A stretch of 61,057 bases of DNA from assembly GCA_977020255.1 (NCBI GenBank), contig CDROCS010001093.1, positions 124,001 through 185,057 on the forward strand. The letters are read 5' to 3'. A model generated the notes under the pieces. That model made no database searches. It saw only the letters and a program-made list of their open reading frames with translations, and was not told the DNA's origin. Source of the stretch: Obrimoposthia wandeli (lineage: Eukaryota). Shown here one piece after another: positions 1 through 55,172 of the stretch (position 1 is the stretch's first letter; each line of letters begins with the position of its first letter). The position numbers were made by a program, and so were the translations under genes.

Positions 1-149
1 TATGAAAAAACACAGTCATATTTAAAAATTTATTAAAATTTATTCAATTTATTCAATTGACATTTGAATCTTAAAAATAAGCTCTTTAGTCAGTTTTGAT
101 AGGGAACAAGCAGTAGGTATTAAGAGACGGGATATTGTATCATCTAAAT

Positions 150-1075: not shown

Positions 1076-1084
1076 TTTGAAAAA

Positions 1085-1550: not shown

Positions 1551-1554
1551 TCAT

Positions 1555-2850
1555 AATTTGGAGAATTTAGTTGATGCAGATGCAAATAAATATTTATCTA
1601 AAGTTTGAGGTATACTAGACAATTCTCATGATATTATGTACTCAGCCCATATTTAAACATATGATATAAATCATATCCTTTAAGATTCTGAAACAATATG
1701 GCAATGTGTAGTTTTTTGAGGAAATCGACAGCCAATGTTACAATGTTACCTAGGTATCGCTTGTAATATAATCACGATCTCTGACTAATTTTGATTATAT
1801 ACCGCACAAATAACAAGTTTTAATATAACTAAAATTAATCCAATTTACGCCAGTTATGCTCAGCAATTGATGTACGTTTAGATCATACCAAGGGTTGACA
1901 ATTGTCTTCCTAATTCTTTAAATTTTAAAACACAATCTGGTCCAAATTGAAGAAGTTTGTTTAAATAATGTGATTAGAAATCACATATTTGATTTGAATT
2001 TAGATCGACAATAAATATATTTGTTGAAAAGACTCTTTACAAATAATTTATAATACTGAGTTATATTAGAGCCTAAGAATATTAGTACTGACAAAGCTGA
2101 TAAGTAAATATTATCGTACTGGTCGTGCAAAGCCGAAATTTATTCAAAGTATATAAACACCTTGAATTGAACAGGTATGCTTTTTGCCCAATCCCTGAAT
2201 TTGATATCTTTATATTGTAATCAGGATTCAGTTTACATAATGTCAAGTGTTTGTTGAATAAGAGCTCAGATTTAAATCCATGTAAATGTTTATGACATAA
2301 TTTACATCTTATCCTAACCGATACGGCTCTATTATCTAGATTTCAAAGTCGATCTGAATTCGTGAAATTTATTTTGATATTTAAGAAAAAATGTTTACTG
2401 GAGTCACATATTTTATGCTCCTATAAATCACATACGAATGGATTTTTAATAATTTTTTATTATTAAATTATGATAAATTTACAGTGACATCTGTATAATG
2501 TTTGAAAACATTAATACTGAAGTTATCCATGAGTTTAAATTTAGAAATCGTAGTTAATTTAACAGTAAACTTTATTCCATGATATTAGTATATAGTCAAA
2601 GCCCCTGGAGATACGCTGCGCTCATTAATCCTTTGTTTTCATACCAACGCTATATATCTTACAAGGAAATGTACTTTAGTTGTCATAAAAATTAGGAGTT
2701 CACAATTTGTACAAAAATTATGAAATGAATTCTACATATAAAAGTTATTTCATTATCTGCTAGTTTTCAGTATATAAAAAGTTATCGAAAGAAATATTTA
2801 TGTGATAAATTTATAAATGTGTTTAAATATATTAAATTATAGAAACACTA
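1555..2850 (-). pseudogene. POLB: pPolB remnant (copy A)
   Basis: The reverse complement matches about 18200-19540 of copy C (e.g. ggttaggataagatgtaa, ttcagggattgggcaaaa, ttagtcagagatc, aaaggatatgattt). It has many stops and indels. Confidence 0.8.
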
Positions 2851-4039
2851 ACGTGATTATATGAATAAATACCAAATAAAAATGAATTACCTAAAATATT
2901 AAATTGTTATTGGTTTAAAATAAAACTTTACCAAATTCCTATTGGATTTTAAAATTCGCAACACTATTTCAACTAGTGCGCTTAAATTTTTGGATTTAAA
3001 GTATTTCAATTAAACCAAATCATAAAATTTATTTTATAAAAATTTAATACATATAACTTTTTTATTATAAATAAATAGCAGCTAAAACTATATTTTTAAT
3101 ATTGCAATATATTATGTTTATCATATACTAAAATTTCACTGAGTTCTTTTTATGACCGTGCGAAACGTTTCCTTGTTAGTAATAACGTCTATATAAGGTA
3201 AAATTTACTCAAAAACACTTAAAAATTACTTTAAAAACTAATAAAATGAATTAAAAATTACTCCAAATCATAAAGTCTTGAAATTGTGCGTATTGAAATA
3301 GCGCATGCAGGAACAACTGACTCTTTGCTGCAAAGTTTCAGTATGCATCATTTCAATGATTGTTTCAGTATGAACGATTTCGAGACTGCATTTTTAAATT
3401 TCGCCGATTTCACAAGATTTTTATAAGATAGGATTTTTTAAATGTGTTTTTAAGACTTATAAATTTCAAAAATGACCAAAGTCTCCCTTACGGAGCCTCC
3501 TAAGAGAGGAGCCCTGTATGGTCGGGTAGTACCTTTGACAATAAATATTTTAAATATATCATTTGGGAAACGTTTCTTCAGAGTATTTATAAATTTCAGA
3601 GCTTCATTAGCTTTAATAAAAAACTCTGACATTTTTAATTTTTAAATCTAATTTTATACCTCTGAAAATAGTATTTAGATGATTTATATCGGTATTGTGA
3701 ATTCTTGAAATGACGAAATCAAATTTGGATTTTATTAGCATGACAGGGTATTAAAATTCATAGGTTACAGGCATTTTGAGGAAATTCATTGAGTAATTGC
3801 TGGTACCTCTTTATTAATTTTTTTTAAAAAAGATTCTCAATTCCGTATCATCAGAATCTATATTGATTGTGCTATTGAGAAATTGGGTTTTGTTCACATT
3901 CGATATTCTATTCTTCTTTCTATCACCGCTCTTCAAAGTTGTTTTTTGTAAATTGCACATGATTTAATGAGAGTAAACTGAAATTTTTGTTAGTTATAGT
4001 TGACAACTTGAATCTGATTGTATAATATAAAACTATATA

Positions 4040-4362
4040 AGTCAGTGACATCATCAACACTATTATTAAATAATGAATATAAATTATAAAAAGGAACTTA
4101 AGGAAAGTGTTGCAAACAACCAATCAAACATGTCAAGAATATAGACATTGAGAGTATTCAATCTCTAAATATATTAGTGAATATCAACAAGAATGTTAAT
4201 TTGTATAAATTATCTTTGAAAATGGGAATCAATTGCATGTTTGAACCAAAATTGTTTCCAGCACACAGAATTTTAAAGTTTGATCATATATGTGTGATTA
4301 TTCGTGGTATTAAAGATTTTGATTATTATAGTCAAGTTGAGTCTATTGTATATTTTCTGTAA
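4040..4362 (+). pseudogene. TATA-binding-protein-like remnant inside copy A
   Basis: The frame reads DIESIQSLNILVNINKNVNLYKLSLKMGINCMFEPKLFPAHRILKFDHICVIIRGIKD. This resembles TBP repeat 2 (FKIQNIV...FPIRLEGL...SYEPELFPGLIYRM...GAK) with an apparent deletion of the IFxSGK segment. Confidence 0.45.
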
Positions 4363-4779
4363 ATTGTTTATAAACAAAAATATGTTATATGATTTTTTTT
4401 GAAAATGCTTGTTGATTATATAATTCATTATAGAACTGTTAATGACGTTTTAATTAAACGAAAAGTAGAATATACTAAAATGACAGTTTTTTATAAGAAA
4501 TATAAACATGAGAGCGTAAGATTAATTGATTGGAGAAGTATATGTTTCAAGTATGAATGATATACAATTAAATGATATATTATATTAAAATAGTTTACAA
4601 AATTTCAAAAAAACAATGATAATGATGTTAAATACTTTTATTTACATGTTAAAAAGTTTTAGCTAAAAAATTCATAATACATTTTTTATATTTGCATTTA
4701 TTTGTAAGTTAAAAAACTTATTAAAAAAATCTTAATAAAAATTTTGTTTAAATTTATTTGTAAGTATAAAAAAATTCTC

Positions 4780-5170
4780 TTCTTCCTCACTGGTGTCACT
4801 GGTGGTATATGTATCCTCACTGCTACCACTGAAATTGAAGGATATGTAACTTGAGCAGAGTTCTGTTGGGTAGTAAAGTCTTCTCCATCTTCTACCGATC
4901 ACTGACTAATCAGGTCGACACATAGATATATCTGTACCCCTTATCCTTCTGTTGCTGGTGGTGATGCTGCTGTTGCTTCTATTGGTGTCGTCGTAACTAA
5001 AGGGTCAAAGGGCCCACCATCGAACTTTGATTAAGTAAGTCAATGTACTGCGATTGTGGTGGCGTTTGTCGCTGCACTGGAGATAGATCCTCATACAGCT
5101 CAACATCCATCTCTTCGTCTAGGTCTCCGTACAACTGCTCTTCGAGCTATGCGCCCATATCAACATTGTG
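4780..5170 (-). pseudogene. Remnant of Polinton gene 1 (SIM-motif protein), copy A
   Basis: The reverse complement gacctagacgaagagatgg...ctccagtgcagcgacaaacgccaccacaatcgcagtacattgactta matches 13797-13890. Confidence 0.8.
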
Positions 5171-6399
5171 GAAATGAGGTATTACAAATATTAATCAGGG
5201 AAAATAATGTTGAAAGGCCTCTGCATATAAGACATATAAGACAAATAATTTTTTCAAAAAGCATAGTAGTTAATATGTTTTTTTACAATATTTTCCCTGC
5301 CCACGGAGTCTGTTTAAACAAATTACATTTGTCTGAAAGAGAATTATATAAATAAATTTGAAATAATTATCATAAATGAATTATTAGTAACTTTGTTGTA
5401 ACAAAATCAAGTTGTTTTTTGTAATTGAATGAATGTCTAAAGCCTCGGTAGAGTTAATGAATGGAACGAGACAAATGATAATCTTGGTACAATGTAGCTA
5501 GCATCGCTGCTGTTTCGTTTTCGTAGCACCAATAAAAAAGATAACGTTCGCTTTTGATATACCAACAACAATGGGCAGCTAAAACAAAGATAACGAAATA
5601 GGGAAAGTGTTTAAGAGAGTTAGATAAATAATGGTAATCCATTTTCTGTTTTACGTTTCTCAGAATGATTTTATTACCTCAATTATTATCGTGTCATTAT
5701 TGTAAATTACTTTGTAATTATAAAAAGTTTTTAATATTTTTGGTTTCACATTGAAACATATTTATTTCAGATATTCATAAAATCGATTTCAAGAAAAATG
5801 TTAGAAAGGAAAAATTATCGAAAATTACATTTTCCTAGTTAGTAAAATGATAGAAAACCCAAATAAAAAAAAGAGACCAATATATCAAAAAAGATAATTT
5901 TATCAAAAACAATTTGAGTTACTCAATTTTTCTAGTAGAACGTTTATTTTTTCGATTATTCTCTTCCCTTAACCCTTATCAGCAAATGTGTCGACATGCA
6001 CCATACTAAGTATTATTACTTTTATTCTAGACTGCAAAACAGGCTGATTTTTTTAATTATAAATAAAATCTATTAAAAATCTTTATGAAATTTTCAAAAT
6101 GAAAATAAGGTTACATAAATTGTATTCTTATCCTAACAAATATCGATATTTTGTCAATATTCAATGTATCATTCGTTACAGGGTGTGTATAGAGTGAACT
6201 TTCAAACATGTGTGCTTAAAATATTTTTCTACTACATACAAACAGTCATAGTCAAAAACTTCAGAAATTACTATGAATTTTCAAATAAATTATTTGAATA
6301 ATACGCTCTTATTGGATTATGAAAAAGGGTTTGTCTCATGTTGAAGTATATCAGGAGACATATTTTAATTATTTTTCATTATTTTTTACTAATTAAAAA

Positions 6400-6720
6400 A
6401 TGTTTTTTTACAACGTAGACTTGGACGACGATATCGAGGAGGATTTGTATGGAGACCTATCTTCAATACAATGACGAACGCCACCACTATCACAGTACAT
6501 TGACAAACTTAGTCAAGACTCGACAGTGGTGAGCCAACCTCTTGCTACGACGAGACAAGAAAAAAGACAGCAGCATGAAGAGCAGTACCAAGAGGAAAGA
6601 TATCAAATTGTATTGACTTGATTAGTCAAAAACCGATAGACCTAAGGGAACCTCTCGCCACTTCGATTCCAAAAGTAGCAGCAGCTGCAAGAGGAAAGAA
6701 GCAATGCGACGAGAAGGTGA
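6400..6720 (+). pseudogene. Gene 1 exon-1 remnant (copy B)
   Basis: ATG at 6400 reads MFFYNVDLDDDIEEDLYGDLSSIQ*, then SQYIDKLSQDS and CIDLISQ, homologous to 13776 onward. Confidence 0.8.
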
Positions 6721-8575
6721 GAAAACTAAAACTTTACATAAAGCTACAGATTTTTTGAGATAAATTTGTAACTGAGAATGGAAGAAATTCCTATGAAAAA
6801 ATTGTTAATTGTAGCGAGTGGTACATTTCTTTACTTATATCTCATCAACTCTCACTTTCCATTGTTAGCATAAAAACAGTGATAACATTTGCTTCCTGAA
6901 GCGAGTTGATTATCTTCAAAATGAATTAATTACTGAGCAGAGAGAGCGTGTCAGTAAATATACCCATTTTCTAAATGAATTGCAATATCATGGAATATAT
7001 TTCCCTGTTAAATTAAATGCGCTATATAGATTTGAAAACATGAATAACTTGAATATTATTGTATTCAAATATAATACCGATATCTCAGTTAATATACCAA
7101 AATAATAATAAAAAAACCTTTTGTAAGCATAATTTACAGGAGCAAAAATGAGGGGACTCCGGTCAACTTAATTTTTCTCTAATATAATAATAAATTCCAC
7201 AATTCCAAATTCCAAATCTTTATCAACTTTTTAATCTTGATAACGGAGCCTTACTGATTAGGATAAGGTTTAATTAGTGCAATAGATGTTTGTATGGATT
7301 CAGATCCTAGCTCCCTTACAACAAACACTTGACATTATGTATACTGAATCCTGATGGCAATAGCTATATAGCATGCCAAAGGAAAAAGATTAAAAATCAG
7401 GGTGTATGCAGATTTTGAATCAATTTTAACATGATACGACCAATATGAGAGTATTAACCTACCGGCATCGGCCGGACTATTATTCTTTGGCCCCAGTATC
7501 ATGAATATTCCGGTTCAAATTGCATTTTAGATTTTAGATTAAAATTTGAAGAATTAGGAACTTCAATTGTCAAACCGTGGTATGTTTTTAATGCTCATCA
7601 ACCAATAATCATGACTAGCATAAACTGGGTTAATTTTAATTTTAGTAGAACTAGTTATTTATGTAGTACTTAGTCTAGGTTAGTTAGAAGTCACGATAAT
7701 ATTACGGGGCGATATTTGAGAGTGGAATACAACCTTTGTAACTTTGGCTGTTGACTCCCTTAAACACCATGTATTTTTCATCGGTTGATAATCTCAAAGG
7801 ATATTATTTGCATCATATACTTAAATACGCGTTGGGTACTATCGTGGGAATTGTCATATATACCTCACACTTCAGATAAATATTTACCTTTAACTAAACA
7901 ACTTTATACAATTTAAAAAATAATAGTATCTTTGGTAACAATGTAGAGGACTTGCTGAAACGTATTTGTCTACGGTTTTGGAATGATGTGTGTAAGCTAA
8001 TAACATATTCTAGCAAGTACAACTTCAAACATAGTTTTATAATAGCAGATGACTTGGTAGCAGTATTATTAGAAAATTAGAGCGTTTGTCTCGATCAACC
8101 GAGTTTTATAAGTCAAACAATCTTAGTTATTTAAAAACTCAGAATGTATGAGCTCCATTATATTGAATTAGAGAAATATCGTAACGAATTCAATCGTTAG
8201 ATCAAAATTGTAACTGGGGACACTGATTTTTTTTTTTAAGAATGTAGGAAAGTTAGTTTACAAAATCAATTATTACCTGTAATGTTTAGAGATAACCTAC
8301 TAGATACCCCTAAATATATCGTTAATCATCCTATACACTCTATGACTTTAGAGGATTTTATCAGGAAAATTAAAAATGAAAGCTAGGATCAGGTTTCGTA
8401 TTAGGATTGCAAATTTAATACATCCTTAAATGCTACTGTTTAGATACATCTAAAAATACATGTTCAATGAGAGCAAAGAATGTGGGGAAAACAATCTTAC
8501 ACATGAGGCCTACCGGATAGCTTATGATACTGAATGCATTGAAAGTTCCAAGCAAACTAGATTTATTTTAAGGTA
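6720..8575 (+). pseudogene. POLB: pPolB remnant with several internal deletions (copy B)
   Basis: Matches 18200-19500 and 20560-21200 of copy C, including gagagcgtgtcagtaaatatacccc and ggggacactgat (GDTD). Confidence 0.85.
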
Positions 8576-8599
8576 ATTCACCATCTAGTTGACTTTGGC

Positions 8600-9640
8600 T
8601 ATAAGCTTTAATTATTGCCGTATTCGCCATTTCGTTTTTTAATGTATTGTTAAACTTGTCTTGGCTCCGTATGTGAAATATATTAGTTGTCCGGATTCAT
8701 CTCTAATATTTACTTCAATGTGGTTTATAGATAAGAGAGAAACTGGAAGATTCATGGGTTGATCTATACCAATACCGATAACTTTACCTATTTTAGTTTT
8801 ACTTTTGGGTTATTCATATTGTTATCAAAAGTGAGACTAGCAGTTCTCCTACAAGCGTTGATTCTATTAAACTAGTATAAATATATAACTGATTAAAAGG
8901 ATTTAAAAGATTTGATAGATTGTCTTTCAAAGGTATTTTCGATTAAACCAATTTTAACGAGTTTATTATCACAGGAAAACCGTTGTATATTGTTCTTTAC
9001 TGTAAATGTCAACTTACCATTTTTAATGTTACACATTTATTCAAATATTCGATGAATTCCTTCATTATACATATTCATAAATCAAATTCATTATATATTT
9101 TATAATATTTTGAAAGTGTTTTCAGTTCCAGTACATCTTTAGTTCTAGCTTCAGCTAACATAAGTGTTCTACTTTACCAAGAACATTTTAAACAAATTTA
9201 TATGATTCAATATCTCATTTCTTATTAGCTAATGCATGTTTGCTGAAAAAATTGAATTTAAAAGCCTTTTTTTAATTCTAATGTCAACTGAAAAAGTTTT
9301 AATCGATTTTATTTAATACTTCTTTTTTATATTTTCAAATAATACTTTCACATTTTTATTTTCAAATTTGAAATAGAATTTCCTTTACTATCAAACTTGA
9401 TCAACAATATCATTTGTTTCATGTACTTCTTTTCTTTTGTAAAAGGAATATGTGAGTTTTTTCTGATAGTAATTGGAGAACAATAAAATTTAATGTCTGT
9501 TAAAACCGTTTCACATTCTCGTTGGAGATTTATAGGATTTTTCCAATAAATAATAAAGCTACTAGCATCATTATCCGTTTAGATGGATAAATATGGAATA
9601 TTTCAATACGGTTTAATGGATATTATGCAGATGTCCATGA
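8600..9640 (-). pseudogene. PX: Penton remnant that retains the N-terminus missing from copy C
   Basis: The minus strand reads MDI...TDNDASSFIIYWKNPINLQRECETVLTDIKFYCSPITIRKNSHIPFTK... and ends ...AKTSLTIH. It has multiple stops. Confidence 0.75.
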
Positions 9641-11834: not shown

Positions 11835-12333
11835 ATGATCAGTCTTCGGTTTCTAAGGAAGAAAGTGACCACGAGATGAAGTTATCAACGATTTTAACGT
11901 TGTGGCTAAGTAATATTTGAAAACACATTTTCTATTTATTTGAAAATTATGTAAAGTAAATATAAAATCAGAAAATTTAGGGCCAATTTTGAAATTGAAC
12001 TCGGTTAATTATTAGACGTTATAATTCTGTGGAAATATTTTAACGCCTAATAAAAATTAGTACAATAAATATCGATTGATAATAGTCTTTTGTATGTCGG
12101 TGTTTGGTTGAGATTTTAGTAAATATATTATTACATTGAATAAAAACTACTAAAGAAATTACCTTTATCTATGTTGATGGTAGAAAAGTACAACATCATG
12201 CGAAGATCAAAACCCTCATTATACAAAACGTTCTTAATTTTTTGTTTAGGTTAATGGGTCTTGTTCAGATAAGTAAGGTTTAGCAAACCTAATCAGTAGG
12301 TGGATGTGTCCGGTCTAATCCACACACCCCCTC

Positions 12334-12415
12334 CCCCCTTGTCCTTTAAAACCGTGCATGTGTGTTGAGTGAAATTTCACTCCAAACACATGCACGGTTT
12401 TAAAAAACAAGGGGG
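12334..12415. repeat. 82-bp near-perfect loopless palindrome in the left terminal region
   Basis: Centred on GAGTGAAA|TTTCACTC (12374/12375). 37 of 41 positions pair, checked manually. Confidence 0.95.
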
Positions 12416-12460
12416 CGTCCCCCCTAACATTTTTTCGCGCCTGTTATAGGTCTGATATAG

Positions 12461-12647
12461 GTCACAGACTAGCTTGGCGATGTGCGGATGTCTCGCTCTC
12501 ATATATGTCACAGACTAGCTTGGGCGATGTGCGGATGTCTCGCTCTCATATATGTCACAGACTAGTTTAGGTGATGGGCGGATGTCTCGCTCTCATATAT
12601 GTTACAGACTAGCTTGTGTGATGGGCGGATGTCTCGCTCTCGTGTAT
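12461..12647 (+). repeat. Four tandem 46-47-bp repeats in the terminal region
   Basis: Unit GTCACAGACTAGCTTGG(G)CGATGTGCGGATGTCTCGCTCTCATATAT starts at 12461, 12507, 12554 and 12601. Confidence 0.95.
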
Positions 12648-12726
12648 ATCACTAACTACCTCGGGTGATGGGTGAAAGTCGATGGGTGATGGGTAAATGT
12701 CGGTGGGCGTTAGGCTGGTGGTGTTT

Positions 12727-13775: not shown

Positions 13776-15590
13776 ATGCCATTCTACAACAACGTTGACC
13801 TAGACGAAGAGACGGTGGTTCAACTCTATGGGGATCTCTCTCCAGTGCAGCAGCAAACGCCACCACCGTCGCAATACATTGACTTAGATAGTCAAGAGTC
13901 ATCGGTGGTGAGCGAAGGAGAAGCAGCAGCAAGAGCGAACCTGTTACAAGAAGAAGCCTCATTGGCCAGCTCAACTCCAAGAGAAGAACCAATGGACGTG
14001 AGAGGTGGGGTACAGAGATCCCAATATATTGACCTGACAAGTCAGGATTCGATAGAGAATTGGGAAGACTGTACTCCCAGACAAAACACAAAACCCAATC
14101 GTCCGGCAACTTCAGCAGTAGCAGCAGGGAGATCCAATCTCTTCCAGAATTTTGAGGCGGCAATCAAATGCCCCTGGAAATTGATCCCGCTGTCTCAGCC
14201 GGAGAAAGTCCTCGCACCAGACTCAGACGAGGAGCTGTTCACCGATGATGTACCTTCAGATGGGGAGGAGGACTTGACTCTATTCACTGACGAATGGATA
14301 CAGCCAAGTATCGGAGCCCCAGGAGCCAACGAATCGATGGTAGCAGAATTGGACGAGGACGAGTGGCACCTGTTCACCGACGATTGGGATGGGCTCACTC
14401 CCTCTGCTACTCCGAAAGCAGATAATACAATGCCTGAACCATTCAAAAGGCCAAAATCTCCTGTTAGGAGAATAAAACCGACGAATGAGGTTAGACATAA
14501 TTTATTTTAAATGTTTTTTAATTTCATTTTCAGAAACTTCAACTGGATTTGGCACCGTCAGTGACCATGACGGAGAGGCTGATTGAACCGCAATACTTGG
14601 CGAGTCAATGCAGCCAGGAGCTGCCAAGGAGTCAGCTCCGATACCTAGCGTCTCCAGATAATTTTAAGGTAATTTATTTAGATATTAAATTTAATAATTC
14701 ACATAGATGGAGAACATCCACGAAGAGGCGACGCCTATTCAACCGGTGGATAGGAAGCAAACGGTAGTTAAGAAACCGCAACGCCATCGGGTCAAAACCC
14801 TCACTCGGAAGAAAGCCAAGTTGGTGAAAAAGGCTAACCTGCCCATCATTGAGGTAAATTATTTATATGTTTAAATTTTATTAATATTCTGCAGGAACCC
14901 GTCCAGATATTTGAGGAGACTTGGGGAGAAATTACTCCTTTCTCGCGGAAACGGACGAAGAAGGCAGAGGTGAAGAAGACGAGGCGCTCGAGAAAATGTA
15001 AAACCTCAATTGGTCATTATTCTGAGGCGATGATTGGCCAGCAGGAGATTCTCCCATCTCCAGTGGACGATGGTCCAATTTTATACGAGAGGATCTCAGT
15101 CTCACCGATCGAGATAAGTCCGCAATCAAGTCAACGACGCCTGCATGAGTCTGCTTCTCCTCATCCAACAACCAGCCAGAACTTAAAGAGGGCCTGGGAT
15201 GAAGCTGGATTGGACAAATTCCTGGCGGAACAGGATTCACCGGCAATGCTTCCAGATTCGTGAGGGCAACAGGATGCCGTCTCACGCCAGCTTCAGCGTG
15301 AGAAGGAGGAGAAAAAGAAGAAAGCTCTGCGGAAGAGGAAGAGGACTTCTACGTCGGAACCATCAACATCGACTGCACATCCTTCCAAAAAGTTGCGGCA
15401 ATTATTGCCAAAACCTGAGGGAAGGACAATTGCTACAAAGCAACCGGTGAAACCGAAAAAGAAACCGGGCCGGCCAAAGAAGGAACCAGTACCGCTTTCT
15501 CCTATAATACTTAGTCGCAGGGATTTCGATCCGGATGATCCCAATGATGACTTCGTAAAAATGTTTAAAAATATAATTTATAAAAATTAG
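13776..15590 (+). pseudogene. Polinton gene 1: 4-exon, about 563-aa low-complexity protein (SIM-like YIDL motifs, acidic FTDD/W motifs, basic NLS, AT-hook-like KKPGRPKK); one premature TGA
   Basis: join(13776..14489,14534..14668,14707..14853,14895..15590). Three GT-AG phase-0 introns of 44, 38 and 41 nt keep one frame. There is an in-frame TGA at 15261-15263. Introns 1 and 2 are conserved in copy D. Confidence 0.85.
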
Positions 15591-15792: not shown

Positions 15793-16155
15793 ATGGAATT
15801 CATTAAAATGAAGAGTCTGGTGACGAAGATTGAAGCAAACATCAGAATAAATGAGAAGAAAGGGGACTTAAGAAAGAGGGTCCTCAATCAAAATTTGTAT
15901 ACTGCTGTCGCGACAGAGTGGAATCATCGGGTGGAGATACAGGATAGGAGGCTAGCAGAACGCCGTCGAATCGTGGAGTGGAATAAGAAGATCGAATTGG
16001 AAAAAAGGAAGGTGGATGAAAAAAGAAGAGAAGAGATGGAGGATGTTCGGCGAGCAGCAAGAAAGAGAATCCTCCAGATTAAACCGGAAGAGGGTCCTTC
16101 TACAAAAAAATTAATTTTTGATTATTATTTTGTCTTTATTGATTATGTTACATAG
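15793..16155 (+). CDS. Hypothetical charged coiled-coil protein of the Polinton
   Basis: 120-aa ORF rich in E/K/R (RRLAERRRIVEWNKKIELEKRKVDEKRREE), in GC-richer coding-like sequence. The AT-rich tail may be a degenerate intron. Confidence 0.65.
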   Translation: MEFIKMKSLVTKIEANIRINEKKGDLRKRVLNQNLYTAVATEWNHRVEIQDRRLAERRRIVEWNKKIELEKRKVDEKRREEMEDVRRAARKRILQIKPEEGPSTKKLIFDYYFVFIDYVT

Positions 16156-16235
16156 GAGAATTGACAAAATATACCAATCTTAACATGAAAGTACTTCGTT
16201 ATAAACAACGGGATTTGCTGCAAATTTAGATAATT

Positions 16236-16725
16236 ATGCAGGAATATATCATAGATTGTGAGGCTTTCATTAACAAAAATGGGGATTATATTATAAAAGA
16301 ATTATGTATTATGGATGTATGCGACGTTTTTTCATCCATTACATTACATATTTCAAATAGATATCCCGTTTAAAAGTTTAGATTATAAGAAAGAAATTAC
16401 TAATTTATATCTAACTAATTACTTTTATTTATTAAAATGGAAAGAAGGACATAAGGCTTTTTGTGAAATATGTATTTTCGATACAATAAAATCTAATTTT
16501 GATATAGAAAATGGAATTTTTTATGTTTTAGATGAAATGGATGGCAAAAAATATAAGACTTTAAAAAAATATTTTCCTAAATTGAGGTTGAATACTTTAA
16601 ATATTTCACGTGATCATCTATTAAAAATTCCACGAAATATTTGCTGTCCATATCGTAATCATGGTGACCATTGCGCATATAAAAAATGTTTAAGTCTTTC
16701 TTATTATTACTTGACATGTAGATAA
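16236..16725 (+). pseudogene. DEDD/DnaQ-like exonuclease-domain protein with a +1 frameshift
   Basis: ATG 16236 reads MQEYIIDCEAFINKNGDYIIKELCIMDVCDVF. Removing one T from the T-run near 16328 joins it to HPLHYIFQ...NLYLTNYFYLLKWKEG...CPYRNHGDHCAYKKC. DxE..F..KEL..HYIF..WxxG is a pattern I recognise from animal Maverick accessory ORFs. Confidence 0.65.
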
Positions 16726-16926: not shown

Positions 16927-19900
16927 ATGCCTATGGTAAGAATCTATATTTATTATTTCCTTATTAATATTTATTATTTCAGATTACGTGTAACCTATTC
17001 CCTGCATATTGTGGTGCTTCGGCTCCGCATGGAGGAGAGACCTGCATGGAGACAATGTCTGCATACTATCGGACAAAGTCTCGCGGGCTTCACTTCTTTG
17101 TCTGCCCATTCTGCAGAACAATAGAGGAGAAGGAGTTTCGAGACTTCTTCGGTGAACATCGAGCTCATCTATCGTGTTTCACGGCCAACAACAAGAAGAG
17201 GGATATCATGCAATTGGTGCGCGATTCGCAGGCCGCTCCTGCTCCAATTCCAGTTGCAGTCGATCAACCCTTTTACGGTCCTGCGATTGATCTCCAGGCT
17301 CCTGATTCTGACCCATCCACTCAAATGTCTAACAATGAGTGGATGAATGACATATCCCAGTCAGATTTCGAGATAGAGCAGTGGAGCAATAACTCATGGT
17401 TGGAGACCATCGAGGAATCCGATTTCGTCGAGATGTCGGACGACAGCTGGATGGATTTCGTCAATGAAGAGGACTTCATTCCAGCTCAACTTGGATTGCC
17501 TTCATTAGGTATTTTTTATTATTATTTTTAAATTATATATTTTATTTTTTATTATATATATATATATATATATATTTATTTTTTATTCAGGAAGTACCAT
17601 GATACAGCCGTCATCCGATAGGACAGCTATGCCTCCCCCATCTCGAGTGCCTATATCGATTTTAGCACGCATTAGAGGTAATTTTTAAAAATATATTTAT
17701 TTTTTATTATATTTATTTCAGCAGCACTAACCTCTACAACAGCCGCTTCTTCATCGGCAAGGTCAGATTCAAATTCAGCCTCTACATCTGCGGCAGCATC
17801 TATTCCAGCAGCATCGTCTACACCAGCTGCGATTGCCTCAACATCGGCAACATGTCCAATAGCAGCACCTTCAATCTCAGCTGCGTTTGTGTCAACTGCT
17901 AATATAAATAGTTGTCTTCCCGTTCAATTAGGGGGAGGTTTGTCAGCGACAAACGGAAGAAAGAGGCGAGGCCAATTTCTTAATAAGGTCCCACCAAAAA
18001 AACGTAGAGAAAACGGTGCTACTATAGAGTATCACCTAAATAATAAATATGTTATAGTTAAGGTGCCATTAGGAAATGAAATTTTATTAAACGTAGGTGT
18101 AGATTCAAATATTGAAAATCTTTTAAAATCAGAAGTGACTAAATTAGGACAGGCTAAGGTTCAATTTTGTGCAACAGTGCAGTTTAAAAATGTCAATGAG
18201 GAAACTAAAACTTGGGTAATTTCACATAAAGCAACTGTTTTCTATGATAATTTTGTAACTGAAATTGGAAGAAACCTAGATGAAAAAATTGCTAATTATA
18301 GCGAGTTAAGTAGTGAATGGAATCTAGTTAGAATTCACGATGTTAGCTTTGTTCTAACAAAGTTCACTGACATGATATATCTTTCGGGGAGTTCATACAT
18401 TCCTTCACCTAGATCTCTTCAACTTTCACGTTCCATTGTTAACATACAAAACAGTGATAACATTTGCTTTCTGTATAGCGTGTTGGCCATCCTCAAAAGG
18501 GATGTAATTACTGAACATAGAGAGCGTGTCAGTAAATATACCCCTTTTTTAAATGAATTGCAGTATCATGGAATAGATTTTCCTGTTAAATTAACTGCGA
18601 TATCAAGATTTGAACATCTTAATAACTTGAGTATTAATGTATTCAAATATAATACTGATATCCCAGTTAATGTAACAGATGAAAAAATATTTAAAAATCC
18701 TTTTGTAGATGTAATTTATAGGAGCAAAAATGAGGGGACTCAGGTCAACTTAATTTTTCTCGAACAGAATAATAAATTCCATTATGCTGCAATTCCCAGT
18801 TTAGATCGTCTTCTAAATTTAGATAATGGAGCCTTACCGGTTAGGATAAGGTGTAAGTGGTGTCATAGATGTTTGCATGGGTTCCGATCCGAGCTCTTTT
18901 ACAGCAAACATCTGACATTATGTTCACTGAATCCTAATGACAATACGTTATACACCATGCCTAAGGATAAGGATTTAAAATTCAGGGATTGGGCAAAATG
19001 CATACCCGTGGAATTCAGGGTGTATGCAGATTTTTAGTCAATTTTAGCATTGCACGACCAGTATGAGAGTATTCTCCTACCGGCTTCGGCAGGACTACTA
19101 TTCTTAGGCCCCAATATTACCCAGTATCATAAATTTTCCGGTCCAAATTGTATTTTAGATTTTATGTTAAAATTAGAGGAATTAGGAACAACAATTGTCA
19201 AACCGTGGTATGATCTCAATGCTCATCAAGCAATGATCATGACAGGCATAGACTGGGTTAATTTTAATTCTTGTAGATTATGTTATTTGTGTGGAACCCA
19301 GTCTAAGTTAGTCAGAGATCACGATCATGTTACGGGGCGATACTTGGGAGCGGCGTGCAACCTTTGTAACCTTGGCCGTCGTCTCCCTAAAAAACCACGC
19401 ATTCCCATCGTGTTTCATAACCTCAAAGGATATGATTTGCATCATATACTTAAATACGCGTTGGGTACATTAAGCTCTTGGGAAATTTCATGTATACCTC
19501 AAACTTCAGAGAAATATTTATCTTTAACTGCATATACTGAATTCTGCAGTTTAAGATTCATAGATTCTCTGCAGTTTTTGAGCGGGTCTTTAAAAAATTT
19601 AACGGCATCTTTAAATGCATGGCCAATCACACAGTCAGTGTTCCCAGCTTCGGTTAACGATAAGGGGATTTTTCCGTATAAATTTGCGAAAACTTTTGCA
19701 GATTTAGAAAATACAACTGAAATCCCACCCATAACTGAATTTGAAAGTGTAAGTCTTCAAGACTATAATGAGGCCCGTACATTTTGGGTGAATAATTGTC
19801 GAAATCTTTTCGAATATATGCTTTATTATATGAAGTTAGACATTTATCTTTTAGCTGATGTTTTTGAGTCCTTTCGTGTAAAGTCTTTAGCAGAAGATGG

Positions 19901-21313
19901 GCTAGATCCCATGCATTTTTTAGTTTATCTGGTCTTTCATGGGCAACAGCTATAAAAACTCTTAAAATTAATATCGAGTTACTGCAAGATCCCGCGATGT
20001 ATCAAATGTATGATTATGGTATACGCGGTGGAATGACTTTTGTCAACAAACATCATGTTGTCAAAAATCAATCCACGGAGATTCTGTACATCGACATTAA
20101 TAATTTGTATGGGTGGACGCTTACTCAACCTCTACCTCATGCCAACTTTAAGTGGGTTTATGATGTGGATCAGTTGAATAAGTTGATGACAGATTTGGCT
20201 TCTGTTGATACAGTTTCATCCGACGTCGGCTATTTGGTTGAGGTGGACATAAAAATCCCTCCCAATGTGCATGATAAATTAGATGATCTTCCAGTAGCGC
20301 CTGTTCATCAATGCCCACCTAATTCAAAGGTTAAGAAATTATTGTTAACCCATGAAGACAAGTTGAATTATGTTGTGCAATGGCGGCTTCTTCAATTCTA
20401 CTTAAAGTTGGGAGCGAAAGTTACTCGAATTCATCGTGCTATAAGCTTCAGTCAAAACTTTGTGTTTAAAGACTATATTGAGAAGAATTCAAGAAAACGT
20501 AATTTGGCCACTAGCAAATTCGATCGGGATTTTTACAAGTTAAAAAGTAATAGCCTCTTTGGAAAAACTGTAGAGGACTTGCGGAAACGTATTTGTCTAC
20601 GGTTTTGCAATGATGAGCGTAAACTAATAACATATACTAGCAAGTACAACTTCAAGCGTAGTTTTACAATTGCAGATGACTTAGTAGCAGTGTTATTAGG
20701 AAAACAGAGTATTTGTCTCGATCGACCGAGTTATATAGGTCAAACGATTTTAGACATTTCTAAACTCAGAATGTATGAGCTTCAATACATAGAATTTGAG
20801 AAATACTGACAAGAATTTAATTGTGAGATCAAAATCGCGGCAGGGGACACTGACCCTTTCTTTTTAGAATGTAGGAATGTTAGTTTAAATAATCAATTAT
20901 TACCGGCAATGTTTAGGGACAACTTACTAGATACCCATAAATATCCCACTAACCATCATCTACACTCTATGAGTTTAAAGGACATTATCGGGAAATTTAA
21001 GGATGAAAGCGAGGGACAGGTTTCGTATGATGATTGTATTTTCCTACGCCCTAAATGCTACAGTTTACATGCATATAATAATACATGTTCAATGAGAGCA
21101 AAGGGTGTGGGAAGAAACAATCTTACACATGAGGCCTACCGGAAAGTTTATGATACTGGGTGTATTGAAAGCGTTGAGCAAACTAGATTTATTTCAAGAG
21201 CCCATAAACTGTATTCCCATAAATCAACCAAAATCGCTTTGAGTAGTAATGACAACAAGCGCTTTTGGGTAGAAAAGAAGGCTAGCCTGGCTTATGGACA
21301 CTTCAGAATTTAA
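16927..21313 (+). pseudogene. POLB: Protein-primed family B DNA polymerase, 4 exons, about 1400 aa when repaired
   Basis: join(16927..16935,16983..17508,17591..17677,17722..21313). Motifs: NSDNICFLYS/KFHYA, YADF(E)S, an endonuclease-VII-like CYLC..RDHDH..G...GAACNLCN, FHNLKGYD, FIDS, KGIFPY, YIDINNLYG, KLKSNSLFGK, GDTD, LRPKCY and RAKGV. Lesions: TAG 19035, a 1-nt deletion in the T-run near 19916-19921, and TGA 20807. Confidence 0.97.
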
Positions 21314-21574: not shown

Positions 21575-21955
21575 CTAATCGTTTTGCAACGATAACCATA
21601 AAATACATAAATGTCCACAGTTTCTCATCGCAGGATCCTGATATTGTATCTTGTTGTAAAATACTCTTCTTCGTCCTTTTTGAATAGTTGAAACAAGTTT
21701 GTGTGGATAGTACATAGCAAGTGGATCAAATACATGTATTGTCCACTTTCTAACATAAATAGCTATCCAATGTTCTCCTGGTAAATTCGAAGTATGAGTA
21801 ATGATAATGTAACCTCCAGATTGAAAAAATGGAATCATATCAATAGGATAAACTCCATTGAATTTATCACCCAGGACCTTCTCTGCCGATTCTTTTACTT
21901 GTTTTGAACTAAATAAAAATTAATAAATATAAATTTAAAGTATGTCTTACTCCAT
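21575..21955 (-). CDS. PRO: Adenain-like (C5) maturation cysteine protease, 2 exons, 112 aa, apparently intact
   Basis: complement(join(21575..21908,21951..21955)). ATG GA|gtaaga...tttag|T TCA AAA gives MDSKQVKESAEKVLGDKFNGVYPIDM..., with catalytic GEHW, VFDP, QYQD and NCGH. Confidence 0.88.
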
Positions 21956-21956
21956 T

Positions 21957-23186
21957 CTATAATATGACAGTTCTGTTTTTATTGATTTGTATTTCCGAAT
22001 CAAATACTCCGTAAATAAGCACCGTAGTAGGATTTGTTAACGCTGCATTGAACTTAATTTCTAGTCGTAAATTTCCATCCTTTGGTAATTGGCATTGGTT
22101 TATATCAAAGTCTGGTGCCAAAACAAATGTGAAGAACGGACAGCTGTTTTTAAAGTCAGTAAAAGAAATACCATTGTTTATATTTTTATCTAGTTAGCCC
22201 AAATTCCGAATAATAGATTGCGTATAAGCCAAAGCATAAGCGTCACCTTCGAAATCTGTTTTATATGTTTCGCGATAATCAGTATTTCTTGAAATTGTCA
22301 CTGAACCTACACTAAGATTGTCAAATTGAGTTGCATCTGTCGTATAATTTCCTAGAAACTTTGCAGTTTTTTGAAAATAAATTAAAATGAATTTCGGTAA
22401 TCTTACATCACCAAATATTTGATCCTTATTAAGAGCTTGTATACCCGTACCTAAAGAATAAGATATAAGTTTAGTTTCTCTAATAGGATAACAAGCATTG
22501 TTTTTTTCTATTCCTATATTATGTGCCATTAAAACTGATTGCTCGGTTTTAACTCTTCGAACATACAATTTTGCATCCAAAATATCAAGTCTAGGTGTTA
22601 GAATGTCCGTGCTTATCAAAGAAAAATTCCATTTATTACGTTTCAAACGAAGATGTACATTAACACCGGGAATTAAATATTTCGGTTGTTCAACGAAATT
22701 CAATCTCAAAGACCCACACATTTCGTAAGCTTTAGAACCTGCAATCCATTCTTTGCGAGTTGCAACAGTTTTATCATAACCAATGGTTGCCAAATTAGTA
22801 TTTTGAGTATCAGTACTATAATTCAAAAGACTTTCAATCAAAGCTTTATGAGCATAGGAAGAATTTCCACCTTCAATTTTGACATTATTAAGAGTAACAA
22901 TGGCATCACTAAATAAAGAATTAAAGATATAATTTACAGGTGTTACATCGGCATTTTCATCTAAATTAGTACCATCCCGATTTAATACTTTTATTTGAAC
23001 ATAAAGCAAAGTATCATTCAAATCTAAATACTCGCTATTGGAACCATTAATATTAAATTCTAAATCGGTTAAAGTGGTTCCTGAAACTGAGTTAACTAGG
23101 AATATTTATTCAAAGGAAGCATTATCTACAACTACTTGTGGAAGCGGTTTATCAAAAATACACAATTCAGTTTTGGCGCAACTCAT
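21957..23186 (-). pseudogene. PY: Major capsid protein (double jelly-roll, hexon-like), 409 codons with two in-frame TAA
   Basis: MSCAKTELCIFDKP...SFE*IF...EYLDLNDTLLY...PVNYIFNSLFSD...YAHKALIESLLNYS...NLG*LDK...FTFVLAPD...GNLRLEIKF...IYGVFDSEIQINKNRTVIL*. Stops at 23106-23108 and 22194-22196. Confidence 0.93.
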
Positions 23187-23560
23187 TTTGCAAATATTGT
23201 TCCTTCAACATTCTTACGTTTGTTTATATTAATTTTTAGCTTCTTTTTACTTTTAAATCCACTACCTCCTTGGCTTTTATTTGATTTACGTTTTCTAATC
23301 AAATTAGCAACTTCAGGTAAAACATTATCAAGTTCATCAAGCGCATGGTTCTTAAAAGTTGGTATTAGTTTGTTGTCCTTAGATGAAAGGTAATCCTTTC
23401 CTAATTTTGATATAAATTGCCCGAGTCTCTTTAAAAGAGGAAAGGCAAATCTACCTAATGTTCTAAGCCAGCCAGATCCGTATTGTTTACCAACAAAATA
23501 TGGTAATTCTCCATCTTGTTGGCTTTGACTATAAGCTTCAATTATTGCTGGATTCGCCAT
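23183..23560 (-). CDS. Basic virion core-like protein with QxGxG motifs (conserved polinton ORF upstream of MCP)
   Basis: 125-aa intact ORF: PYFVGKQYGSGWLRTLGRFAFPLLK...SQGGSGFKSKKK. Homologous remnants are in copies A and B. Confidence 0.8.
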   Translation of the reverse strand: MANPAIIEAYSQSQQDGELPYFVGKQYGSGWLRTLGRFAFPLLKRLGQFISKLGKDYLSSKDNKLIPTFKNHALDELDNVLPEVANLIRKRKSNKSQGGSGFKSKKKLKININKRKNVEGTIFAK

Positions 23561-24500
23561 TTTGTTTTCTTAAATGTATTGTTAAACTTGTCTTGGCCCC
23601 GTACGTGAAATCTATTAGTTGTCCGGAATCATCTCTAATATTTACTTCAATATTGTTTATAGAAAGAGAGAAACTGGAAGATACATTGGTTGATCTATAC
23701 ACATACCGACAGCATCCCCATCTCTAGTTTCATTTTTAGATATCCATATTGTTCTCAAAAGTGGAACTCTCTGTCCTCCTACAAGCGTTGGTTCTATTAA
23801 ATTAGTATAAATATATAAATGATCACCAGCATTTAAAAAAGTTTTGCCTTATTTTTAGCTTTTATGGTTTTTATTGTATGGGTTTCAAAGGTATTTCTGT
23901 TTAAACCAAGGTTTTTAGCGAGTTTATCATCAAATGAATCTCGTTTTATATTGCTCTTTACTGTAAACGTTAATTTACCATTTAATGTTTCACATTTATC
24001 TAAATATTCACTACATTCCTTCTGTATTAATTTACAGAAATTCACTTCACTATCTATTTTATAATCTTTTGAAAACCTTTTCTGTTCCACTACAGTCTTT
24101 GGTCTCGTTTCAAGTAACAACACTTTTGCTACTCTACCAGGAACATTTCTAACCGATTTAGATGAGACAATATCCCGTTTATTACGAGCTACTGTTTGTT
24201 CACTATCAAAACTGAATTGAAGAGCTTCTTTTTTAGATTCAAAATTAATTTTAATAACTTGAAGAAATTTTAATCGATTTTTAAATCTGACTTTGTTATT
24301 TTCAAATATTACTTTCACTTCTTTATCTATACAATTGTAATAGAATTATCCTTTACTATCAAACCCGATCACAACTTTAGTTGTTATTTCATTATCAACT
24401 TCTTTTGTAAACGAGATATGTGAGTTTTTTTTGATAGTAATTGGAGAATAATAAAAAGAAAATTCTGTTAAAGCCGCTTCCCATTCTCCTTGGAGATTTT
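23538..24500 (-). pseudogene. PX: Minor capsid protein (penton) lacking its N-terminal ~35 aa; one stop and two frameshifts
   Basis: Starts NLQGEWEAALTEF (penton LxGxWEVAL motif). TAA at 24346-24348, frameshifts near 23835 and 23663, ending LTIHLRKQNGESSNN* at 23538. Confidence 0.85.
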
Positions 24501-24942
24501 TATTATTTATATTATTTTGTTTAAATAAAGATTGAACTTGCTTATTATAAAATTCTTTTCCTAAATCAGTTTGCACATTTTGTGGAATGTCCTCTTTTAA
24601 TATTTCTTTAATGGCTTCAAGCATAGCTATTGAAGACTTTGCTTTAACTGGAATTGCACGAGCAAACCTGCTAAATACATCAATACATGTTAAAATATAT
24701 CGATATCCCTTATTAATGGAAGAATATGGAATCATCTCCATCAAATCCATTTGCCATAAATTATTAGGACCGCTGGTTTTGTAAGCTCTAGTTGGAAACC
24801 TTCTTCTCATTGGCTTGTTCAGACTGTAGGCTAACTGGTTGCTCAGCCATTTCTGCGTTTTCTTGTATTTTTGTTTTGTTCTTTTTGCTAATTTTGAAAC
24901 TCCGGTGCAGCCAATTGGATCTTTTGGGTTGAACCATATCTT
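24500..24942 (-). pseudogene. INT: Retroviral-like (rve) integrase, N-terminal half only; start codon lost
   Basis: KIWFNPKDPIG...KWLSNQLAYSLNKPMRRRFP...LWQMDL...LTCIDVFSRFA...QTDLGKEFYN. The third catalytic residue (VERFN) and the C-terminus are deleted. Copy E shows ATG GAG at the position where C has a 5-nt deletion. Confidence 0.93.
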
Positions 24943-25029
24943 CTACAACAATTTGAATAAAAAGAAAATTTAAGATTAGGTAAAGAAGGGCTAGCAACCA
25001 TATCTTTAGCTGATTTTAGAAATAATTGT

Positions 25030-25359
25030 TTATGAACGTGTCGCAGCTATAATACTACTGATAATTGAAGCAACAACTATAATAACAGCTCCTATGAAAC
25101 CACCATTCTGTTTAAGAATAATATTTCGTTTCCTTTTTTTACTTTTTACATTAGCAATATCTAGAAGAGTTTTTCTATATTTCTTTAATAAATTTTTCCG
25201 ATTTCCAACTTTTACTCGACCCAAAACTATATTATACAAAACTTCCTATAAATCATCTACAACAAAGGATGGAAATGCTTTAAGAATAATCATTCTCTTA
25301 TTAGAAGAGGCTTTGACTAAAACTTTAAAATAGGGTATGCTTCTTTGTATTTTCTTCAT
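25030..25359 (-). pseudogene. Small conserved polinton protein with C-terminal QNGGF plus hydrophobic tail (candidate virion/membrane-active protein); one TAG
   Basis: MKKIQRSIPYFKVLVKASSNKRMIILKAFPSFVVDDL*EVLYNIVLGRV...LLKKYRKTLLDIAN...IILKQNGGFIGAVIIVVASIISSIIAATRS. Stop at 25246-25248. Confidence 0.75.
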
Positions 25360-25390
25360 TTTAATAAAAAAGGTGTTATTTAAATATTGT

Positions 25391-25531
25391 TTATATTCGA
25401 AGCCATTTAAGTTTTTTTTTATTTTTAACTACAGATTTGATTAATTTTTTCACTTCTTTTTTCTTAATGATTCTTTTTTTTGATTTCTTAGATTTTACTT
25501 TACGTTTTACTATCAACTTTGTAAAAGCCAT
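25391..25531 (-). CDS. 46-aa extremely Lys-rich protein (protamine/H1-like candidate core protein)
   Basis: MAFTKLIVKRKVKSKKSKKRIIKKKEVKKLIKSVVKNKKKLKWLRI has 19 K and 3 R. It sits between the ATPase stop (25539) and the next ATG (25359), below the ORF-track size cutoff. Confidence 0.65.
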   Translation of the reverse strand: MAFTKLIVKRKVKSKKSKKRIIKKKEVKKLIKSVVKNKKKLKWLRI

Positions 25532-25538
25532 TGCGAAT

Positions 25539-26120
25539 TTATTTTTTATAATTGTTCTCTATTTGTTTATAAACAGTTACTCCCTTAGAATTAAATATGT
25601 CTGTTAAAACACGTAAATCATCTGGGCAAGCTTGTGTAAAGTCAATAAATATATACCCATTGTGCTTGTTTAGCAGCATCGTGGAATGAATCAACTAGAA
25701 AGTTCTTATTTTGAGGAAATGCCTGTCTGACCACAAAATCAACAACTGTTTGATCTCTAGGATTTTTAAATAAAACTAAGTAATGTACATTAAGATTTCT
25801 TGTTCTATGGTGACCTCCTTGGTGAAACAGATTTTGAGTGATAAATATAACTGTTACTTCACGATGTCTTGCAATCTTTGTAAATAAATTATTAAAGTCC
25901 GATTCCTTGTTAGCCTCCTCATACAAATCATCAATTATTATTACATCTTATTTTTTCAATCTTTCACACCAATTTGCATCAAATCCTTCAATAAATTGTA
26001 TTCCCTTCAACTTGTAAACTTATGTTTTGGTTAACCCGCTTTCCCCTCCTCCACCATGAAAGTATTTGAATTAGAAACATAGCGTATTGCATCAAGAATT
26101 TTATTAAAAATCACATTATA
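25539..26120 (-). pseudogene. ATP: A32/FtsK-like DNA packaging ATPase, 5'-truncated
   Basis: Walker B VIIIDDLY, LFTKIARH, IFITQNLF, LNVHYLVLFKNPRD and, after a frameshift, GYIFIDFTQACPDDLRVLTDIF. Walker A was not found. There is a TAA just before Walker B. Confidence 0.9.
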
Positions 26121-53730: not shown

Positions 53731-55172
53731 ACGATCTAAATTGGGAATTGCAGCATAGTGGAATTTCTTATTATGTTCGAGCAAAATTAAGTTGACCCGA
53801 GTCCCCTCATTTTTTCTCCTATAAATTACATCTACAAAAATATTTTTAAAAATTTCTTCATCTTCATCTAAATTAACTGGGATATCTGTATTATATTTGA
53901 ATACATTAATACTAAAGTTATTAAGGTGTTTAAATCCCAATACGCTATACAGAAAGCAAAGGTTATCACTGATTTGTATGTTAACAATGGAACGTAAAAG
54001 TTGAAGAGATCTTGGTGAAGGAATGTATGAACTCCACGAAAAATAAATCATGTCAGTGAACTTTGTTAGAACAAAGCTAACATCGTGAATTCTAACTAGA
54101 GTCCACCCACTACTTAACTCGCTATAATTAGCAATTATTTCATCTAGAATTATTTCTTCCACGGGTAGGTTGATAGTTGCCTCCTCCAGAACGTCTTCCA
54201 CCAATTCGGCTTCCTATATGAATAATTAAAATTAATATATAATTAAAATTAATTTACATCAATAACATTCAGAGTCAGTAGGTATTGGTGTTCAGTCCTC
54301 GGCTCCTTCTGGCTGTATTGACTCGCCAAGTACTGCGGTTCTATCAGCCTCTCCGCCGTGGTCACTGACGGTGCCAAATCCAGTTGAAGTTTCTACAAAT
54401 GAAATTTAAATAAATTTAAATAAATTAATTCTAACCTCATTCTTCGCCTTTATTCTCCTAACGTATCGGAGATTGTTGCCTTCTGAATGGTTAAGGCGCC
54501 GTATTGTCTGCTATCGGAGTTGGAGTAGCAGAGGGAGTGAAAGCATCCTATTCGTCAGTGAACATCCGCCACTCGTCGTCGTCCAATTCTGCCACCATTG
54601 ACTCATTTGCGGCAGATGTGTTGTCAGGGGCTCCGAGACTTGGCTGGATCCATTCGTCGATGAATGGGCACGCGTTGGCCCTTAGATAGCCTCCCAGACA
54701 CTTCTTCACTCTGTGGGAGCACTATAAGATTTTCAATTTTAAAGGGTTTTAAATGCAGTTTATTAGTTTTTAAAATGTTGGGGGTGGCGTAGAAAAAAAA
54801 CACGTATACGTTACTTTATATAATTCATAAAGTTATATATAGGGATTTAGTGGCACGGTCGGTATGGCACGGCACACGTGAGGACAAATTGGAGAATTTC
54901 AGAAGGTAAATGGTAAGCCAGGAATAGCAGGGACCTGCTCGAATTCGCTTTTGACGGAATTCAAGTATCCCATGCGCTTAATTTTCCAATTTCATTTCCT
55001 CACCTTGACCACCGTACAATCCACCGCCAGTAAACTGCATTTGTGCAATTGAAAGGTGTATACACGTCTCAGGATATTTCCACTCCACACACATTCCCGA
55101 AATTTCACTCCACACACAAGGACAGTGGTAGAAAGTAGCGGGAGGACCGGACATATCCACCTACTTTCTACT
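53730..55172 (-). mobile_element. Polinton copy D: terminus, gene-1 exons 1-3 remnant and PolB fragment, internally deleted
   Basis: The minus strand starts AGTAGAAAGTAGGTGGATATGTCCGGTC (55172). Gene-1 exon 2 is at 54258-54392 with introns 54393-54435 and 54214-54257. The PolB fragment 53730-54145 matches 18277-18810. Confidence 0.9.

Follow-up and report, generated by a model that had tools for sequence, protein, structure and literature searches.

Does a gene near the left end of the Polinton in this stretch of DNA (61,057 nucleotides, hereafter the window) contain spliceosomal introns, and if so, were the introns inherited with the element or acquired in its present host? The preliminary description had reported three short GT-AG segments in this gene, had joined the four blocks around them into one reading frame, and had proposed that the family depends on the spliceosome of its host. 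We examined the question in the copies of the element found in the host genome, in more distant Polinton families, and in relatives on metagenome contigs.

The element and its host

The window copy is a broken member of a high-copy animal Polinton/Maverick family, called family B here. Its identification as a Polinton was borne out by Pfam matches to the protein-primed family B DNA polymerase (PF03175 pPolB, E 4e-12 and 4e-16, above the cut-off) and to the retrovirus-like integrase (PF00665 rve, E 3.5e-13), and by the match of the protease profile to the adenovirus proteinase 1avp (E 1e-6). Most genome-wide matches start within 4 bases of the left end near 12295, and a similar starting sequence is found near 55160 in a second copy on the minus strand (copy D). 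The palindrome just inside the left end is 90% complementary and is followed by five 47-nt tandem units (12451-12664); the accessory gene in question is placed 1.5 kb inward of that end. The window copy is truncated near 26040 and lacks the right end. Family B is abundant, with 2,000-5,000 candidates per search, and the 40 candidates scored in each search were 96-98% identical. The coordinates of the features are collected in Table 1.

At least four more decayed Polinton fragments of other lineages lie in the window (1-9540, 40260-42220 and 53700-55165 are among the regions), and among the fetched loci the nesting of one Polinton family within another was common. An ORF at 44641-45231 (196 aa) has a weak EAL-domain match that is below the cut-off (E 3e-4).

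The host is an animal, as Wnt family matches were obtained on at least seven contigs. Its genome is AT-rich and 1.35 Gb in size, and its own genes contain GT-AG introns of 36 and 42 nt in addition to longer ones. The same genome holds 21 uninterrupted matches of approximately 500 codons to the Cpn60/TCP1 family, on separate contigs and alongside ordinary intron-bearing CCT genes, an apparent large expansion of intronless chaperonins. The search of a viral contig collection for relatives of the window Polinton found none, and the metagenome contigs that carry relatives may be host DNA.

Table 1. Positions of the Polinton features in the window
Feature	Position	Strand	Remarks
Polinton left end	12295..12450	+	starts AGTAG; contains 82-nt palindrome 12334-12415
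Accessory gene, exon 1	13776..14489	+	714 nt, 238 codons; two YIDL motifs flanked by SQ; three LFTD[DE] repeats
Accessory gene, intron 1	14490..14533	+	44 nt, GT..AG, phase 0; in-frame stop within
Accessory gene, exon 2	14534..14668	+	135 nt, 45 codons
Accessory gene, intron 2	14669..14706	+	38 nt, GT..AG, phase 0
Accessory gene, exon 3	14707..14853	+	147 nt, 49 codons
Accessory gene, intron 3	14854..14894	+	41 nt, GT..AG, phase 0
Accessory gene, exon 4	14895..15590	+	696 nt; basic, KPGRPK motif; in-frame stop 15261-15263 in window copy
DNA polymerase B gene, protein-primed	16927..21313	+	broken in window copy; PF03175; three introns in 5' non-catalytic part
Polymerase intron 1	16936-16982	+	47 nt, phase 0, after third codon
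Polymerase intron 2	17509-17590	+	82 nt, phase 1
Polymerase intron 3	before long exon	+	~44 nt, phase 1
Adenain-type protease gene	21575..21955	-	ATG plus 2 nt 21955-21951; intron 21950-21909; exon 2 21908-21575
Major capsid-type gene	21957..23191	-	inferred from size, position and relatives; stops in window copy
Remains of minor-capsid-type, integrase (Pfam rve) and ATPase genes	23467..26040	-	window copy deleted and truncated here
Copy D, decayed piece of accessory gene	54214..54665	-	introns 1 and 2 retained

The accessory gene

The three segments were confirmed in position, length and phase, and their GC content is 13-16% as compared with 47-50% in the four exon blocks. Removal of the segments would leave 563 codons and a stop codon. 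For the window copy itself, the single open frame that had been claimed failed at the stop in exon 4; that codon is a sense codon in all 29 sister copies, and in five of the 29 all four blocks are free of stops and frameshifts. The expected conservation of the splice dinucleotides across the family was found, since each of the six is intact in 28 or 29 of the sister copies (intron 1, GT 29 and AG 28; intron 2, GT 28 and AG 28; intron 3, GT 29 and AG 29). In 30 family-D loci, the counts were GT 27 and AG 28 for intron 1, GT 26 plus two GC for intron 2, and GT 19 and AG 23 for intron 3, at which several of these loci are rearranged. Ten more distant copies retained the AG of intron 1 in eight cases and the GT in seven, with lengths of 23-50 nt and with two loci unanchored. 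Some decayed copies carry mutated splice sites, as is expected of fossils, and such sites lend no support to current function.

As each of the three introns has a length of 3n+2 nt, the exons occupy different genomic frames, which splicing alone would join. We compared families B and D exon by exon, using 10 random copies per family. In the spliced frame, net pN/pS was 0.29 for exon 1 (1.23 and 2.55 in the other frames), 0.34 for exon 3 (1.84 and 1.19 elsewhere) and 0.41 for exon 4 (1.09 and 1.54 elsewhere). Exon 2 failed this B-versus-D test, with a pN/pS of 1.31; when it was compared with seven more distant copies, the spliced frame gave 57 synonymous and 45 non-synonymous changes, and the other two frames gave 28/90 and 13/98. 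By these codon comparisons, all four accessory exons show coding-type evolution in the frame that splicing would require.

The alignment of copies that had been suggested as a check, in which GT/AG should be conserved while the interiors diverge neutrally, was carried out with natural copy pairs from 30 copies of family B and 23 of family D (seven of the 30 family-D loci were dropped: the window's own copy, two near-duplicates and four that were rearranged). Net divergence was 0.00-0.01 at GT/AG and 0.06-0.09 in the intron interiors, which is the predicted direction but, with 12 sites, has little power. The argument from differing interiors is further weakened because synonymous sites are more diverged than the interiors in three of the four exons (0.13-0.29 for exons 1, 3 and 4; the value for exon 2 is 0.06). 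Copy D does contain introns 1 and 2 as had been described, in that a 43-nt GT..AG segment (54435-54393) and one of 44 nt (54257-54214) flank an exon of 135 nt, or 45 codons. Their interiors do differ from those of the window copy; as a signature of functional splicing, however, the difference is weak proof, because copy D has decayed to a fossil whose exon 1 contains stops and whose exon 3, by a deletion, runs from its start directly into polymerase sequence, and differing interiors are partly the product of decay. A comparison of two copies, one from B and one from D, is no test of selection.

Families D and E have the accessory introns at the same positions as family B, intron 2 being 44 nt long in most family-D loci. 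Family D has, in addition, a fourth intron of approximately 74-78 nt and an extra exon of 59 codons similar to the first part of exon 4. Introns 2-4 have common IE|E flanks, and the fourth intron of family D has the same IE|EP flanks. Because of the shared flanks and the similarity of the exons, the fourth intron is likely the product of a tandem duplication in which an exon was copied together with an intron, although the intron interiors are only weakly alike. In another locus (L124), a deletion has removed exon 2, so that the 5' portion of intron 1 now continues into the 3' portion of intron 2.

Pfam and Atlas contained no match to the accessory protein, and no homologue was found in searches covering lengths of 130-417 only. 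Two YIDL-type motifs are present in 22 of 25 family-B, 18 of 27 family-D and 8 of 19 distant exon-1 segments, and the protein combines acidic-aromatic repeats with a basic tail that includes KPGRPK. We take these features, by their resemblance to known motifs, to suggest SUMO binding, transactivation and chromatin contact, respectively. The LxCxE motif was found in only one of the 71 exon-1 segments (0 of 25, 0 of 27 and 1 of 19) and in none of the four exons in the window. We tentatively suggest that the product could be a disordered nuclear regulator that acts early, by analogy with adenovirus E1A, although we would not call this prediction probable.

The protease gene

The putative intron of the protease gene is 42 nt long, in phase 2, and begins five bases into the coding sequence, an arrangement that we write as ATG-NN|GT..AG|N. 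The protein encoded downstream has the hallmarks of its class, with His, Gln and Cys invariant in the alignment and Asp nearly so. The arrangement is present in 13 of the 14 distinct family-B contexts that have the start in view. Family F, in which the protease is 45-54% identical to that of family B and the gene order differs, shows the full pattern in five of eight contexts (38-39 nt), the pattern with one changed letter in two, and no such pattern in one. The metagenome set comprises 77 loci, of which 37 show the 5' end of the protease gene; at the same codon, 14 of the 37 (10 distinct elements) have ATG-NN|GT..AG|N, and the remaining 23 have no such intron.

Several of the intronless metagenome loci, L265, L290, L301 and L323 among them, have an ATG exactly two codons upstream, and in several intronless relatives the ATG is found where excision would put the start codon. 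In L265, L301 and L323, the protease begins with M-D-S. Read without splicing, every intron-bearing protease start meets a stop at codon 2 or 3, and exon 2 has no Met before the conserved G-V-Y/F-P motif. Among 20 database proteases that were aligned, six close ones have an internal Met as their start or run into intron-like sequence, and the others have a Met start at most a few residues from the spliced position. The earlier expectation that standard ORF calling misses such genes holds, on this evidence, for the protease.

We placed the intron on a midpoint-rooted capsid tree of 35 rows, from which three near-duplicate loci were dropped and loci with no readable protease start or too little capsid sequence were excluded. 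The 14 intron rows and L265 make up one clade with support of 100/100, in which 14 of 15 rows are thus intron-bearing. Two changes suffice to account for the distribution, and none of 500 shuffles was as clustered. L265 represents either a loss or a sister lineage. As judged from this tree, the protease intron marks one capsid clade.

The polymerase gene

With phases of 0, 1 and 1, the three candidate polymerase introns link the ATG in frame with the long exon. GT..AG is found in 27, 22 and 26 of the 29 sister copies at introns 1, 2 and 3, respectively, and the remainder are mostly unmapped. The start intron is also present in all eight family-F loci, in which introns 2 and 3 were not seen. 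Both metagenome relatives that were checked (L277 and L280) lack the start intron, and its distribution is, therefore, narrower than that of the protease intron.

In family F, the ATPase-to-protease module, the next gene and the polymerase gene all point in one direction (L213, L215 and L217), unlike in family B, and the family retains both start-codon introns, that of the protease and that of the polymerase, despite this difference. AT-rich GT..AG segments at other positions are present in the polymerase 5' region of metagenome locus L260 (upstream of 12520, minus strand) and in the accessory gene of L265 (downstream of 3011, minus strand). Elsewhere, the Cys/His-rich module of the polymerase N-terminus is found as tandem units or as a gene of its own (L174, 1-560; L280, 6238-7389), and in L174 an intron-like segment lies between two Cys/His-rich units. 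Pfam gave no match to an OTU domain in the polymerase, in which a Cys..His pattern can be seen by eye that may correspond to an OTU-like motif. A small frameshifted gene upstream of the polymerase gene (16228-16725), which families B and F and the metagenome relatives have conserved, may encode a DEDD-type exonuclease, judging from a sequence motif.

Other core genes

The major capsid-type gene is uninterrupted in sister copies. It specifies a conserved protein of approximately 410 aa with 166 relatives, in the expected position, and has no Pfam or PDB sequence match. The GPSGSGKT P-loop of the putative packaging ATPase was read in sister copies, as the gene is truncated in the window copy. 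No intron was seen in the integrase, ATPase, and minor and major capsid-type genes of the sister copies. Two candidates were rejected. An intron at the start of the integrase gene, where the window copy has a small deletion, was discarded because nine close copies have the start codon position directly upstream (ATG in eight and ACG in one), and the AT-rich tract that follows the ORF at 15793-16155 lacks the GT donor in seven sister copies.

Discussion

We think it very probable that the segments in the accessory, protease and polymerase genes are true introns. They have the features of U2-type introns, namely a GT donor, a pyrimidine-rich 3' end with YAG, a restored reading frame and a size like that of introns in host genes. 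The GT..AG ends carry little weight by themselves: when the window was scanned with lax settings, GT..AG yielded 7 bins and seven control dinucleotide pairs yielded 3-12, so that the ends are no better than chance. The case thus rests on the reading frame and on conservation across lineages, and on these two grounds the spliceosomal introns proposed in the preliminary description are upheld at the level of sequence.

The explanation that we favor for the whole set, and in which we have good though not complete confidence, is that the short GT-AG segments would be introns inherited by the element and spliced by the host. The elements would be transcribed in the nucleus by the host RNA polymerase II, the major spliceosome of the host would remove the introns, and splicing would be needed to produce these proteins; the lineage would then likely depend on host splicing. 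The introns would have been passed on with the element and not inserted after integration. The protease intron would represent an old gain, and those of the accessory gene would likely have multiplied by tandem duplication of exon and intron together.

A different hypothesis is that the accessory gene is captured host cargo that brought host introns along, as with wasp and krma of nematode Mavericks, and that it says little about the biology of the element. The gene does occupy the same site and have the same look as the published region, which is GC-rich, poorly conserved and intron-bearing and adjoins the left end, and the failure to find a homologue outside the host genome is compatible with cargo whose introns are real. 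Nevertheless, the gene has persisted in three diverged lineages under purifying selection, and capture cannot account for the introns of the protease and polymerase genes. We regard this hypothesis as doubtful. That the AT-rich segments are spacers between short genes, or neutral tracts bounded by GT and AG by chance, is highly improbable: exon 3 of family B does begin with ATG, and AT-rich islands are bounded by control pairs no less often than by GT..AG, but exon 3 has no ATG in family D, exons 2 and 4 do not start with one, exons 2 and 3 have no terminal stop, and at the protease, whose second exon offers no early Met, the excised form agrees with that of the intronless relatives to the exact codon. 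Least credible is the gain of introners or other insertions in the present host after integration, which is how most introners came to populate Polinton-like elements of dinoflagellates according to the available text of PMC11957031, since the positions here are common to lineages that are approximately 50% identical in protein and to metagenomic elements, the interiors of five introns show hardly any resemblance in pairwise comparison (z no higher than 3.1 in 10 pairs), unlike those of a young introner family, and the clade-wide protease intron largely refutes insertion after integration. The inherited introns that we propose may themselves have had an ancient introner origin.

If host-spliced introns are inherited in this lineage, the question is why they are kept. 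The default answer would be neutral retention, because loss needs precise excision, which a DNA element with no reverse-transcription step would rarely achieve. Alternatively, the introns may improve expression, may allow escape from the silencing of intronless DNA, or may serve as a splicing switch for the protease. HUSH silencing of intronless DNA is a vertebrate system in the portion of PMC8770142 available. One could envision that the clade gates its virion-maturation protease by the intron, the unspliced RNA yielding at most a dipeptide, so that splicing would be kept as a host-controlled switch between a quiet transposon and particle maturation, or as a pass for 'self' under surveillance of intronless DNA, while other genes would gain introns and multiply them by exon-intron duplication. 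We consider this scenario unlikely.

If the clade does have a spliced protease and polymerase, surveys that look for intronless ORFs would score its elements as truncated or broken; in vertebrate studies, 'intact' is defined by intronless ORFs in the available text of PMC8097293, and the database entries for the protease of this clade already look mis-started. An intron kept across elements that are approximately 45-55% identical in protein would point to long residence in animal nuclei, and the protease intron would provide a clean presence/absence marker for intron gain in viruses. Junction reads would reveal if, and at what time, the maturation protease of a Polinton is expressed, a point relevant to the existence of animal Polinton virions.

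Comparison with known systems

Adenovirus E1A is a spliced, disordered regulator encoded at the left end of a nuclear dsDNA virus that uses the host spliceosome. The accessory gene differs from E1A in having no sequence link to it, no Rb-binding motif and no zinc finger, and there is no sign of alternatively spliced long late transcripts, so that the term 'adenovirus-style', which had been applied to the dependence on splicing, was an overstatement.

The vertebrate Mavericks/Polintons described by Barreat and Katzourakis (2021, PMC8097293) resemble the present elements in their pPolB, rve integrase, ATPase, adenain-type protease and capsid-type genes, in two opposed modules and in the decay of most copies. 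In the available text, they have eight intronless ORFs and intact elements have no introns, unlike the elements described here, in which the protease and polymerase genes would carry inherited ones. Polinton genes are commonly described as intronless; intron-bearing cargo had already been published for nematode Mavericks. These (Widen et al., bioRxiv 10.1101/2022.07.12.499685) likewise have, in the interval from the left end to the core genes, a gene that is GC-rich and contains introns; as described in the part of that preprint at hand, their core is intronless and the wasp and krma cargo comes from known host families, whereas in the present elements introns appear to be found in core genes, and no relative of the accessory gene is known.

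Adintoviruses (Starrett et al. 2021, PMC8502044) share with these elements an animal host, PolB, integrase, adenain, a virion module and a candidate regulatory gene upstream of PolB, and the main text of that paper, so far as available, mentions no spliced genes. The adintovirus Oncoid is defined there by LxCxE with an adjacent paired CxxC, a definition that the accessory gene fails, with LxCxE in one of 71 segments. The available text of PMC10120064 states that endogenous viruses contain no introns, and element surveys there use prokaryote-style gene callers; cryptophyte elements contain group I introns, according to the accessible part of PMC12220804. A spliced Polinton core gene is not reported in the available text of PMC8502044, PMC10748475 and PMC12721341 or in that of three preprints (bioRxiv 10.1101/2024.03.25.586562, 10.1101/2024.01.15.575659 and 10.64898/2026.10.13.758929), and a search of the openly accessible main texts turned up no account of spliceosomal introns being inherited in the core genes of Polintons.

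The dinoflagellate Polinton-like elements (Gozashti and Corbett-Detig, PMC11957031) also contain spliceosomal-type introns. In the available text, those introns are introners, mobile, mostly young and gained after integration, whereas the introns described here appear fixed, conserved in position and lineage-defining. Intron-bearing Maverick cargo was known already; the clade-wide protease intron and the polymerase introns set the present elements apart.
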